A stretch of DNA of 64,000 nt from Escherichia coli (GTDB lineage Bacteria; Pseudomonadota; Gammaproteobacteria; Enterobacterales; Enterobacteriaceae): the NCBI RefSeq assembly GCF_003334255.1, contig NZ_QOWU01000002.1. The stretch is one strand, 5' to 3'. The position numbers and the translations under genes were made by a program. Each line of letters starts with the position of its first letter. Positions within the stretch are counted from its first letter, which is position 1. Positions 1,054 through 4,802 of the stretch are shown in pieces. The notes below the pieces were generated by a model that searched no databases, was not told the DNA's origin, and saw only the letters and a list, made by a program, of their open reading frames with translations.

Positions 1054-1066
1054 CAATGGAGAGAAT

Positions 1067-1228
1067 ATGTCACTGGAAAATGCCCCTGACGATGTCAAAC
1101 TGGCTGTCGATTTGATTGTGCTGCTGGAGGAAAATCAGATCCCTGCCAGTACCGTGCTGCGCGCGCTGGATATTGTAAAGCGTGATTATGAAAAGAAATT
1201 AACGCGCGATGATGAGGCGGAAAAGTGA
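1067..1228 (+). CDS. ybaM: Small protein YbaM (DUF2496), 53 aa
   Basis: ATG at 1067, TGA at 1226-1228; translated by hand as [53 protein letters not shown]; below the 60-aa cutoff of the ORF track; 13 nt after priC stop. Confidence 0.8.
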
Positions 1229-1281
1229 GAAATAAATGGGGTCGCTAAATGTCCCCTAAGGTTGCGGGCAAACGCAAAACT

Positions 1282-1380
1282 GCCTGATGCGCTACGCTTA
1301 TCAGGCCTACACCGCTCCTGCAATATATTGAATTCTTGCGGTTTCGTAGGCCGGATAAGGCGGTCACGCCGCATCCGGCA
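1282..1380. repeat. BIME-like pair of inverted REP palindromes
   Basis: GCCTGATGCGCTACGCTTATCAGGCCTAC (1282-1310) and GTAGGCCGGATAAGGCGGTCACGCCGCATCCGGCA (1346-1380) in the convergent ybaM/mscK gap. Confidence 0.8.
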
Positions 1381-1439
1381 TGAACAACGCGCACTTTGTT
1401 AGCAATCTCGGGGCAACTAAATGTTGCCCCCTTTCGTTT

Positions 1440-4400
1440 TTACCCTACCGCTGGCGTCGGGTCATCGCCTTTGTAGTCGCGTTTTACTTCCGTCACCTCA
1501 TCGCCCTTCTCGTTGTGCAGATGCACTTCAAGCTGGTTAAAGGCAATGTTGATGTCGTTTTCACGGCACAGCTGATCGATAGTACGGTTCAGCTCATCGA
1601 CAGTACGACTACGGTCACGCAGTTCACGCACATACAGACGCAGCTCATGATCCAACGTGCTGGCACCAAATGCCGTAAAGAAGACTTCCGGCATTGGTTC
1701 GTGCATCACCCTTGGGTGCTCAGTCGCCGCCTTCAGTAACACTTTACGCACTTTTTCCAGATCGGAGCCATAGGCCACGCCGAGACGGATCACCAGACGC
1801 GTAGTAGTGTCAGTCAACGACCAGTTGATCAGACGCTCGGTAACAAACGCTTTGTTCGGGATGATCACTTCTTTGCGATCGAAATCGGTAATCGTTGTCG
1901 CACGAATACGGATCTTACTTACCGTCCCCGAGAAGCTACCAATGGTTACCGTATCGCCAATACGCACCGGACGTTCGAACAGAATGATCAAACCGGAGAC
2001 GAAGTTACCGAAGATCTCCTGTAAGCCAAAACCAAGACCTACGGATAATGCTGCGGCCAGCCACTGGAGTTTATCCCAAGAGACGCCCAGCGATCCGAAC
2101 ACCGTCATCGCACCAACGGCAATAATGATGTAGTTAAGGATGGTAGTAATGGCATACGACGCGCCCTGGCGCATATTCAGTCGCGAGAGCACCAGCACTT
2201 CCAGCAAACCAGGCAGGTTGCGAATCAACGCCCAGGCCACCATTGAGGCGATAATCGCAAACAACAGGCTGCCCATGGTGACGTTTTTCACCACCGCAGC
2301 ACCAGCTTCAGTACCGTTGTAATGCCAGAGCGTAATGCTGTCGAGATAGCTGAACACGGTGATCAAATCGGACCAAATTGCCCAGAACATGACACCGAAC
2401 AGCGCAAACATCAGCAACATGGTAATACGCAGCGTCTGCTGGTTAACCTGTTCCAGTGCAATGGTGGGTTCTTCCGGCGGTTCGGCACCTTCTGCGCCCT
2501 CTTTCACCAGATTCTGCCGACGCGCCAGCGCACGACGCCAGGCGATACGCCGCGCCGCTACGCTTAAGCCACGCAGTACCGTCTGGTACAGCAGGTTCCA
2601 GATGATCACCAGATAAACGGTTTCAATCCAGCGTCCTGCCAGACGCAGCGTAGTGTAGAAGTAGCCTGTAGCAGTCAGCACCATCAGCGCAATCGGGATT
2701 ATCGACAGCACGGTAATGGTGACCAGTCGCATGGTGTGCGACTCTTTATCACGCCAGCTTTCGCGGCACATCGGCCATACCAGGAAGGCAATCAGCAGCA
2801 GGTTGAAGAAAATCATCGCTTGCCCCAGCACATCATCCATCAGATGCAGCGGGGAAAGTTCTGCCACCACAGACCAGAAATGGATAGGCAGCAATGCGAG
2901 ACTGATGCGGACAATTTGCCGACGCCAGTGGCTGGTCTGCTGTTCCGGCATGCCGAAGTGACGTACGGCAACGCCGTTTTTCTCCAGTACCTTCCAGCAC
3001 AGGCCAAACACCAGCCAGAATATCGCCAGTTTTTTGCTGAACGACCATAGCAGTTCGCTGATGTTGAGCTGCATGGTCAACAGAATCAGGCCAACCGCGA
3101 GAATAATCAGGCACACCGGCAGCGCACGGATCAGGTCGATAAGGATCGCTTTTGGTGTGTTGAGCTGGCTGTCGTTACGCAGGGAACCCACAGCGGAAGC
3201 CAGTTTTTGTTGATACGCTTTCAGCCAGCCCAGACGCCAGTGGATCAGCCCGGCAATCAACAGCAGCGGCAAACCAGCGAGGAAAGCGATAAAAACGGCG
3301 GGCCAGGCTTTTTGCCAGTTCACCGTGATTTTCATCGACTTAAATTCATCTTTCAGGCTTTGCGGGAACGCTTTGATCCAGTCCCAGTCCATTGGACGGT
3401 TACTGTTCACCCAAAAGATTTGCTGAGTCAGGATGGATTTCAGGTTTTTCGACACACTCATTAACTGCTGCTGGTTGATTTGCAGGTTAATGGCCATCAT
3501 CAGCTGGTTACCCAACTGTTTGTTGAGTTGATCCAGCAATTCGCGACGCATATCAACCACTTGCAATAACGCATCGTGAACTTCGCTGTTGACTTCGTTG
3601 GTGTGACCTTCTTCCAGTTTGTTGACGAACGCATCGCTCTGGAAGAGTGCATCACGCTGCTGGTTAACTTCAAACTGTTCGAGACGCAAATCCGCGATGC
3701 GGTTGGTCATGTTTTCCAGTTCATCCGCCGAGGGCAGCGTTTGTTGTTGCTGGTAAAGGATACGAGACAACAGCAGGCTGCCCTTCAGGACGGCAATCTG
3801 CTCTTTAATATTGCGTTCCGATTGCAGCGCCCGCTCCAGCCAGTTTTTGACTTTAATGTTTTGCTGCATCAACTGATTACCGTTTTCAGTCGCGGTAATC
3901 AGACGCTGACTTAACTGCTGGTTAATTTCCAGTTCCTGCTTCACCAGCGGATTAGCCTGAATACGCGCGGCTTCATCCGGGGAGACGGCTTCCTGCGCCG
4001 TTTTTTCGGTTAAAGTCAGGCGCTTGCTGTTTACCGCTTCTTGCAACAGTTGTAACTGGTGCTCCAGACGAGCGCTGTTCGCCGTCACGTAATCACGTTG
4101 CTTTTGCAAGGTATCCTGCAAGACGGTGTTCCCTTCCAGGCTTTTACGCTGCTGGTCAATCTCCGCATTCAGCAACGCCTGCTGGGCCTGCATTAACACT
4201 TTCTGGCTGGGACGTAAGGCTGTCTCGCCGACATCAGTCCCATCCAGACGACTGCGAATTTGTTGCAGCTGCTGCGAAGCGTTATACATCGCATTTTGCA
4301 CGCGTTCGGGCTGCGTCTGTAACGAAACCAGCTGGCTGTTATAAGACGCCAGATCGTTTTGTGCGTTTTGCAAATCGTCCAGCGCCTGGGCAACGCGAGT

Positions 4401-4802
4401 TTCCAGCTGGCGCAACGAAAGCGTGCTCAGAATTTTGCGCGTTTCTTCGTCGTTATCGACATCGCTAAGTGCTGTTAACGCCGCGGTCGCCTGGCGCATT
4501 TTTTCCGGCGCTTCAGCGACTTTTTGCCGTAGCTGAACTGTCTCTTCTTTTATGCGATCGATTTTATCGAGGGTGGCTAATGTATCTGTCAGATCCTGCT
4601 GCACCAGTTTGTCCTGAGCAGAAAGATCTTTTTGTTTATTTAGTGAGTCAAGTTGCGCCTGCAGGTCCGCTTTTGTCGGCAGATCACCATTCGATGACGC
4701 CCGCGCAAACGCCGTGTTCTGGCATAACAAGACAAAAACAAAAGCAATAAATGCTGAAAAAACAAAATGCCGTGATCGTTTGTAATACTGGAACATAGTC
4801 AT
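1440..4802 (-). CDS. mscK: Potassium-dependent mechanosensitive channel MscK (KefA)
   Basis: 1120-aa ORF; N-terminal signal sequence, long coiled-coil periplasmic region and C-terminal MscS-like domain; matches MscK. Confidence 0.95.
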   Translation of the reverse strand: MTMFQYYKRSRHFVFSAFIAFVFVLLCQNTAFARASSNGDLPTKADLQAQLDSLNKQKDLSAQDKLVQQDLTDTLATLDKIDRIKEETVQLRQKVAEAPEKMRQATAALTALSDVDNDEETRKILSTLSLRQLETRVAQALDDLQNAQNDLASYNSQLVSLQTQPERVQNAMYNASQQLQQIRSRLDGTDVGETALRPSQKVLMQAQQALLNAEIDQQRKSLEGNTVLQDTLQKQRDYVTANSARLEHQLQLLQEAVNSKRLTLTEKTAQEAVSPDEAARIQANPLVKQELEINQQLSQRLITATENGNQLMQQNIKVKNWLERALQSERNIKEQIAVLKGSLLLSRILYQQQQTLPSADELENMTNRIADLRLEQFEVNQQRDALFQSDAFVNKLEEGHTNEVNSEVHDALLQVVDMRRELLDQLNKQLGNQLMMAINLQINQQQLMSVSKNLKSILTQQIFWVNSNRPMDWDWIKAFPQSLKDEFKSMKITVNWQKAWPAVFIAFLAGLPLLLIAGLIHWRLGWLKAYQQKLASAVGSLRNDSQLNTPKAILIDLIRALPVCLIILAVGLILLTMQLNISELLWSFSKKLAIFWLVFGLCWKVLEKNGVAVRHFGMPEQQTSHWRRQIVRISLALLPIHFWSVVAELSPLHLMDDVLGQAMIFFNLLLIAFLVWPMCRESWRDKESHTMRLVTITVLSIIPIALMVLTATGYFYTTLRLAGRWIETVYLVIIWNLLYQTVLRGLSVAARRIAWRRALARRQNLVKEGAEGAEPPEEPTIALEQVNQQTLRITMLLMFALFGVMFWAIWSDLITVFSYLDSITLWHYNGTEAGAAVVKNVTMGSLLFAIIASMVAWALIRNLPGLLEVLVLSRLNMRQGASYAITTILNYIIIAVGAMTVFGSLGVSWDKLQWLAAALSVGLGFGLQEIFGNFVSGLIILFERPVRIGDTVTIGSFSGTVSKIRIRATTITDFDRKEVIIPNKAFVTERLINWSLTDTTTRLVIRLGVAYGSDLEKVRKVLLKAATEHPRVMHEPMPEVFFTAFGASTLDHELRLYVRELRDRSRTVDELNRTIDQLCRENDINIAFNQLEVHLHNEKGDEVTEVKRDYKGDDPTPAVG

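Follow-up and report, generated by a model that had tools for sequence, protein, structure and literature searches.

rsmS (ybaM) as second gene of the priC-rsmS operon of Escherichia coli, with a candidate CsrA-adaptor role for its product

The 53-codon frame at positions 1067-1228 of the analysed stretch of DNA (64,000 nucleotides of an Escherichia coli contig, hereafter the window) is, practically beyond doubt, rsmS (ybaM), a core enterobacterial gene that encodes a 53-aa cytoplasmic protein, carries its own Shine-Dalgarno sequence and forms the second gene of the priC-rsmS operon. This is a known gene with a name of its own, an annotation in nearly every complete E. coli genome and a part in the Rsm/Csr pathway that is documented in the literature. 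The finding is ordinary and adds nothing new, and its use is that of a control, indicating that the reader behind the original prediction can detect real genes of fewer than 60 codons. What interest it retains lies in how a 53-aa protein under such strong constraint and conservation modulates the global regulator CsrA, and in why its linkage to priC is so old. The best overall explanation, which we consider moderately probable, combines the identity of the gene as rsmS with an action of its product as a CsrA adaptor.

Reading frame, identity and conservation

The gene order at the start of the window is ybaN (79-456, - strand), priC (526-1053, + strand), rsmS (1067-1228, + strand) and mscK (1440-4802, - strand). 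The first gene of the operon, priC, encodes primosomal replication protein N'', starts with GTG and ends with a TAG stop at 1051-1053; it is present in the ORF list and in the RefSeq annotation, and matches NCBIfam NF007500 with 335 bits (cutoff 249). It is separated from rsmS by a spacer of 13 nt (1054-1066, + strand), which holds the Shine-Dalgarno sequence GGAGAG of rsmS at 1058-1063, the GGAG ending 5 nt ahead of the ATG. Direct reading and the ORF list agree on a frame from ATG 1067-1069 to TGA 1226-1228, and the start, the stop, the 13-nt distance from the priC stop codon and the length of 53 codons given in the original prediction all proved correct. Position 1067 is the first start codon following the previous in-frame stop, which excludes a longer form. 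The frame is absent from the ORF track because it falls below 60 aa, the default cutoff of the ORF tool.

Assignment of this frame to ybaM and the DUF2496 family was confirmed by profile searches. Pfam PF10689 (DUF2496) matches the window protein with E=8.5e-24 over model positions 1-43 of 43 (residues 2-44), and the NCBIfam equivalog profile for RsmS, NF008266, aligns over positions 1-45 of its 46 with E=6.1e-27, its score of 93.2 bits exceeding the curated cutoff of 76; RefSeq annotates the gene as rsmS. All 62 aligned relatives match PF10689 DUF2496 and no other family. The window protein, which forms row 1 of this alignment, carries the LAVDLIxLLE motif and every family-invariant residue (A13, L20, E21, A33 and D40, the only invariant positions among the 62 sequences). 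The earlier description of its function as unknown is outdated: the gene was renamed rsmS in 2019, its product is annotated as 'pleiotropic regulatory protein RsmS', and genetics links it to the Rsm/Csr pathway.

Within E. coli the gene is nearly universal. Several RefSeq chromosomes are 100% identical to a 1.1-kb query around rsmS, with ybaN, priC, rsmS and mscK annotated. Of 5426 complete E. coli genomes, 5421 contain a 196-nt stretch that covers rsmS in exactly one copy, and each of the matches listed coincides with rsmS and priC annotations. Plasmid-labelled records, which may be mislabelled or misassembled replicons, account for two of the 5421 matches.

A scan with one genome per species returned at least 589 genomes with an rsmS relative, the best 80 of which were analysed. 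These 80 loci are all apparently from Enterobacterales, except for a 320-bp contig labelled Pseudomonas yangonensis (L039). The rsmS frame is intact in 81 of 81 loci (the 80 relatives plus the RefSeq E. coli locus L001), with lengths of 48-64 codons and one of 103. Over the 45 core codons, the median dN/dS of the relatives in the best 80 species against the window allele is 0.14. The share of sequences departing from the majority base amounts to 0.14, 0.08 and 0.39 at codon positions 1, 2 and 3, with the third position being the most variable, and a Shine-Dalgarno-like motif precedes the start in 76 of 80 loci. Judged by this pattern of substitution, rsmS is under purifying selection. The family as a whole is small: in a set of 1.84 billion representative proteins it accounts for 181 clusters at 50% identity.

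These data also bear on a reading of the frame as a chance ORF, or one without function, in the 3' part of the priC transcript. Its shortness would fit such a reading, as would the unannotated frames of like size that are common within the 64-kb window. However, the protein scores above the curated thresholds of the family profiles, the frame is preserved at every locus with its low dN/dS and conserved Shine-Dalgarno sequence, and published work describes phenotypes of deletion, complementation and overexpression. We assign practically no probability to a chance ORF, which the conservation statistics and the published genetics refute.

Linkage to priC and other neighbours

The original prediction had suggested co-transcription with priC and named conservation of the pairing as a way to check it. 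This check, once run, gave a positive outcome: at 78 of 80 loci (the remaining two contigs end just upstream of rsmS), that is, at all 78 informative ones, priC precedes rsmS on the same strand. The gap between the genes is 11-19 nt in Enterobacteriaceae, and in Vibrionaceae the junction consists of a 1-nt gap (a Vibrio genome) or an 8-nt overlap (Aliivibrio). The presence of the pair in Vibrionaceae indicates that it is older than the split between Enterobacterales and Vibrionales.

A terminator scan revealed no terminator-like site on the + strand between priC and rsmS; the first one downstream lies at 1410-1430 and is followed by a T-rich tail. A promoter scan found no consensus sigma-70 promoter on the + strand upstream of or inside priC, a result that is uninformative on an internal rsmS promoter. 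In Pectobacterium, a terminator-carrying transposon in priC is polar on rsmS and gives an rsmS phenotype, which is complemented by rsmS and not by priC (PMC6418279). [quoted passage not shown] With support from synteny, from the terminator-free spacer and from published polarity and complementation, priC and rsmS form an operon, and the predicted co-transcription was sound.

In Erwiniaceae the distance between priC and rsmS is about 300 nt; in Pantoea agglomerans (L055, 2747-2992), next to which the other loci of the family have gaps of about 290-340 nt, this interval holds an 81-aa hydrophobic ORF, which presumably resembles a GlsB/YeaQ/YmgE-type membrane protein. Owing to this inserted ORF, Erwiniaceae are an exception to the published rule that places rsmS directly 3' of priC in every case. 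In two Vibrionaceae loci (L082, 556-4180; L084, 489-4204), genes for a DinG-like helicase (Helicase_C_2, DEAD_2) and a TauE-family membrane protein precede priC-rsmS on the same strand. The same TauE-priC order is displayed by a Rheinheimera-like contig (L088), where a helicase gene ends at the left edge. As far as gene order can tell, the arrangement in Vibrionaceae and L088 points to an older and larger conserved neighbourhood around priC.

On Rheinheimera- and Psychrosphaera-like contigs, rsmS (DUF2496) abuts or overlaps a ComFB-family gene (PF10719), the two genes being 1 nt apart at one extreme and overlapping by 59 nt at the other. The comFB-rsmS pairs are located at 2568-3021 in L086, 3664-4210 in L088, 3005-3558 in L089, 3099-3652 in L090, 174-643 in L091 and 1077-1515 in L093. 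Such pairs occur in five sampled non-enterobacterial lineages, in which the neighbouring proteins bear Rheinheimera and Psychrosphaera names. Wherever the contig extends that far, priC is found 1-2.5 kb upstream of the pair, the order being priC, a histone-deacetylase-like gene, sometimes a Trp dioxygenase gene, and comFB-rsmS. ComFB has recently been defined as a family of c-di-NMP receptors (PMC12448109), and the searchable literature yielded no mention of its pairing with rsmS. In one more lineage, rsmS is preceded by ~400 nt that are apparently non-coding, with neither priC nor comFB in view.

The overlapping comFB-rsmS pairs would be in line with a scenario in which RsmS is an ancient, portable two-helix adaptor with a ComFB-type cyclic-dinucleotide receptor as its original partner. 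Enterobacterales and Vibrionaceae would then have kept it beside priC, where it would couple another input, be it second-messenger or replication/growth status, to CsrA. We regard this scenario as speculative and rather unlikely; if true, RsmS would represent a protein-level input into the Csr system that is separate from the CsrB/C small RNAs.

Protein architecture and proposed action on CsrA

The AlphaFold2 (AF2) model of RsmS, built from the 62-sequence alignment, consists of two helices (residues 8-22 and 27-52) connected by a short turn, with a mean pLDDT of 91 and lower values in the C-terminal tail. The conserved DUF2496 core (residues 2-44) includes L3, A6, the LAVDLIxLLE motif (12-21), A33-L34, D40 and K44, while the acidic tail past K44 is variable. 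The protein as a whole is acidic, with a pI of 4.46 in E. coli and a family median of 4.62. A dimer was modelled in tethered form as RsmS-(GGGGS)4-RsmS, with each homologue paired with itself in the alignment. This model reached a pTM of 0.71, with pLDDT of 93-96 in the helices and a disordered linker (<50), bearing in mind that tethering biases AF2 toward helix packing. As halves that are not confidently placed would be expected to give a pTM of at most ~0.4, the value is consistent with a four-helix-bundle homodimer, and we infer the dimeric state from this modelling. Any likeness to Rop-like hairpin-dimer four-helix bundles is that of the same tethered model, with its pTM of 0.71 and its packing bias; no specific structural relative was found. 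NblA and the Rop-type hairpin dimers, as small helical-hairpin adaptors or regulators, can be counted among the systems closest to RsmS.

The tail (residues 45-53, window 1199-1228) varies within E. coli by substitutions and a 1-nt indel. It reads TRDDEAEK in the window, TRDDEAQSEK in strain E69 (the 1-nt indel) and QSDETSQNE in ST131, and TRDDEAQSENKWGR in E. albertii. At position 28 the window protein has a serine, where the close homologues inspected have an arginine.

The functional understanding of RsmS stems from genetics. The Pectobacterium orthologue came to light as a suppressor of an rsmB mutation in the work of Monson et al. (2019), who named it rsmS and explicitly designated E. coli ybaM as its homologue (PMC6418279). 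Deletion of rsmS in Pectobacterium raised exoenzyme and OHHL production as well as virulence and partly bypassed the loss of the decoy sRNA RsmB; overexpression also raised the protease output (PMC6418279). Loss of rsmS, in the published genetics, partly phenocopies loss of rsmA and suppresses the rsmB mutant. In Serratia (2021), cas expression is up in the rsmS mutant and rsmA is epistatic to rsmS, whose action is independent of rsmB and adds to that of pigX/csrD (PMC8450108). Genetics thus assigns RsmS to the CsrA/RsmA pathway rather than to replication restart. Operationally, rsmS is defined by the suppression of rsmB/csrB-null phenotypes on its loss, as shown for the Pectobacterium and Serratia orthologues only.

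The RsmS proteins of Pectobacterium atrosepticum/P. carotovorum (ECA1172) and Serratia sp. ATCC 39006 have the family (PF10689, NF008266), the size and the position 3' of priC in common with window rsmS. Their C-terminal tails, in contrast, are unlike that of window RsmS, and the spacing between priC and rsmS is 13 nt in the window compared with 37 nt in Pectobacterium (PMC6418279). Whereas functional work was done in these plant pathogens and in Serratia, the evidence accessible for E. coli is indirect and comes from envelope stress, a curli screen and a two-hybrid assay. Monson et al. cite three observations on E. coli: YbaM and CsrA interact in a yeast two-hybrid assay, ybaM mRNA has a shorter half-life in the csrA51 background, and loss of ybaM puts cells at a competitive disadvantage under envelope stress (PMC6418279). 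A Congo-red screen for curli has the Keio ybaM mutant among its hits (PMC5745457), and a gut-evolved compensatory mutant clone of E. coli carries YbaM A13V (PMC11406977). Since A13 (codon 13, window 1103-1105) is one of the five invariant positions in the alignment, this substitution is probably not neutral. We infer that the phenotypes seen in Pectobacterium and Serratia carry over to E. coli.

Taken with the models, these genetic data make us lean slightly toward a mechanism in which RsmS, an acidic two-helix hairpin and probable four-helix-bundle homodimer, serves as a CsrA-binding stoichiometric cofactor or adaptor that raises the efficacy of CsrA independently of CsrB/RsmB. An RsmS dimer would bind a dimer of the RNA-binding regulator CsrA (RsmA) and, as stoichiometric cofactor or adaptor, would improve the action of CsrA on its mRNA targets. 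This effect would not depend on the CsrB/RsmB decoy small RNAs, and RsmS in excess would titrate its partners apart. The observation that deletion and overexpression of rsmS shift outputs in the same direction fits a bridging adaptor of this kind, which separates its partners when present in excess. Direct binding of RsmS to CsrA is a hypothesis, for which one yeast two-hybrid report is the sole evidence of physical contact. The statement in the 2021 paper that RsmS 'directly interacts' with RsmA (PMC8450108) traces solely to the two-hybrid citation in PMC6418279. Searches of the available literature returned no biochemical demonstration of RsmS-CsrA binding, no E. coli Csr-reporter study in a ybaM mutant and no mechanistic work on RsmS later than the 2019 and 2021 papers.

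The distribution of RsmS is much narrower than that of CsrA and closer to that of PriC, indicating that CsrA works without RsmS in most bacteria. Small proteins that bind the CsrA dimer and alter its activity independently of decoy sRNAs are known in FliW (Bacillus, Campylobacter) and CesT (EPEC), both of which antagonise CsrA. The mode of action proposed for RsmS is similar; however, according to the genetics RsmS supports CsrA at native dose, whereas FliW and CesT antagonise it. Neither by sequence nor by fold was any similarity of RsmS to a solved protein found, and RsmS is hence not a member of the FliW or CesT family.

RsmS might instead act on something else, for example a protein involved in signalling, transcription control or RNA decay, and alter Rsm-controlled outputs in parallel to CsrA without binding it. 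Monson et al. themselves allow for an 'undiscovered pathway' (PMC6418279), the contact with CsrA is backed solely by a high-throughput two-hybrid result, and the overlapping or abutting ComFB-family gene in the five sampled non-enterobacterial lineages hints at a signalling protein as ancestral partner. A parallel target is nevertheless at odds with the epistasis of rsmA over rsmS in Serratia (PMC8450108) and with phenotypes that follow RsmA targets across three genera. In addition, tblastn detected no ComFB homologue beside rsmS in any of the Enterobacterales or Vibrionaceae loci analysed. We consider this explanation possible but doubtful.

The linkage to priC raises another alternative, namely that RsmS is a partner of PriC in replication restart and that the Rsm phenotypes are indirect. 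The linkage is indeed very old, spanning Enterobacteriaceae, Morganellaceae and Vibrionaceae, and its near-zero or overlapping spacing is suggestive of translational coupling; priC still lies within 1-2.5 kb in the Rheinheimera- and Psychrosphaera-like contigs, and DUF2496 has a taxonomic range like that of PriC. The evolutionary rates of the two proteins, however, are uncoupled: at 75 of 78 loci RsmS shows the higher conservation (median identity 74% versus 57% for PriC), and in Morganella PriC is 36% identical compared with 74% for RsmS. An inserted gene separates the pair in Erwiniaceae, and in other lineages rsmS is coupled to comFB instead. Complementation separates the two genes in both directions, as the phenotype of the Pectobacterium priC insertion is complemented by rsmS and not by priC (PMC6418279), while the synthetic lethality of priC303::kan with dnaA508 in E. 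coli is complemented by priC alone (PMC539235). A role as restart partner is quite unlikely, and the CsrA-adaptor mechanism is the reading that we prefer.

A feedback of CsrA on the rsmS leader was considered and rejected. GGA is present in the Shine-Dalgarno region in 78 of 80 loci and at codons 3-4 in 50 of 80, which is explained by the Shine-Dalgarno sequence itself and by conserved Leu-Glu codons.

The region between rsmS and mscK

Just past the rsmS stop, repeat search and RNA folding reveal a weak GGGG...CCCC hairpin (1238-1256, + strand), the first 15 nt of which form a direct repeat, 80% identical, with the sequence that opens the terminator stem at 1410. The rsmS 3' UTR further contains a BIME made up of two inverted REP copies (1281-1380, + strand), recognised from inverted repeats, a sub-threshold Rfam match and strain alignment, which could affect mRNA stability. 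The terminator scan and RNA folding place an intrinsic-terminator-like hairpin (8 bp, 6 GC), followed by CTTTCGTTTT, at 1410-1440 on the + strand. This hairpin, which directly adjoins the stop codon of mscK on the opposite, convergent strand, is likely to form the end of the priC-rsmS transcript, as predicted from its sequence.

An Rfam search of positions 1-2000 gave just sub-threshold, REP-derived matches 3' of rsmS and no RNA feature inside rsmS. The match to naRNA4 (RF02564) at 1349-1385 coincides with the second REP copy and stays below threshold, at 35.4 bits against a gathering score of 59.5. We rejected it as a separate sRNA gene, such a match being expected of REP-derived sequence.

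In 1367 of 5426 complete E. coli genomes, about a quarter, the arrangement of the window is not matched over at least 80% of the 400-1500 query. The rsmS-mscK intergenic region (window 1229-1440; L087 1693-1730; L002 about 2890-3140) is polymorphic in E. coli. In ST131 it is 38 nt long and comprises a single hairpin and no BIME. The window and E. albertii share the two-REP BIME, placed between the partial hairpin copies GGGGTCGCTAAATGT (1238) and GGGGCAACTAAATGT (1410). Strain E69 carries, in place of the BIME, another GC-rich repeat element, which we take to be boxC-like.
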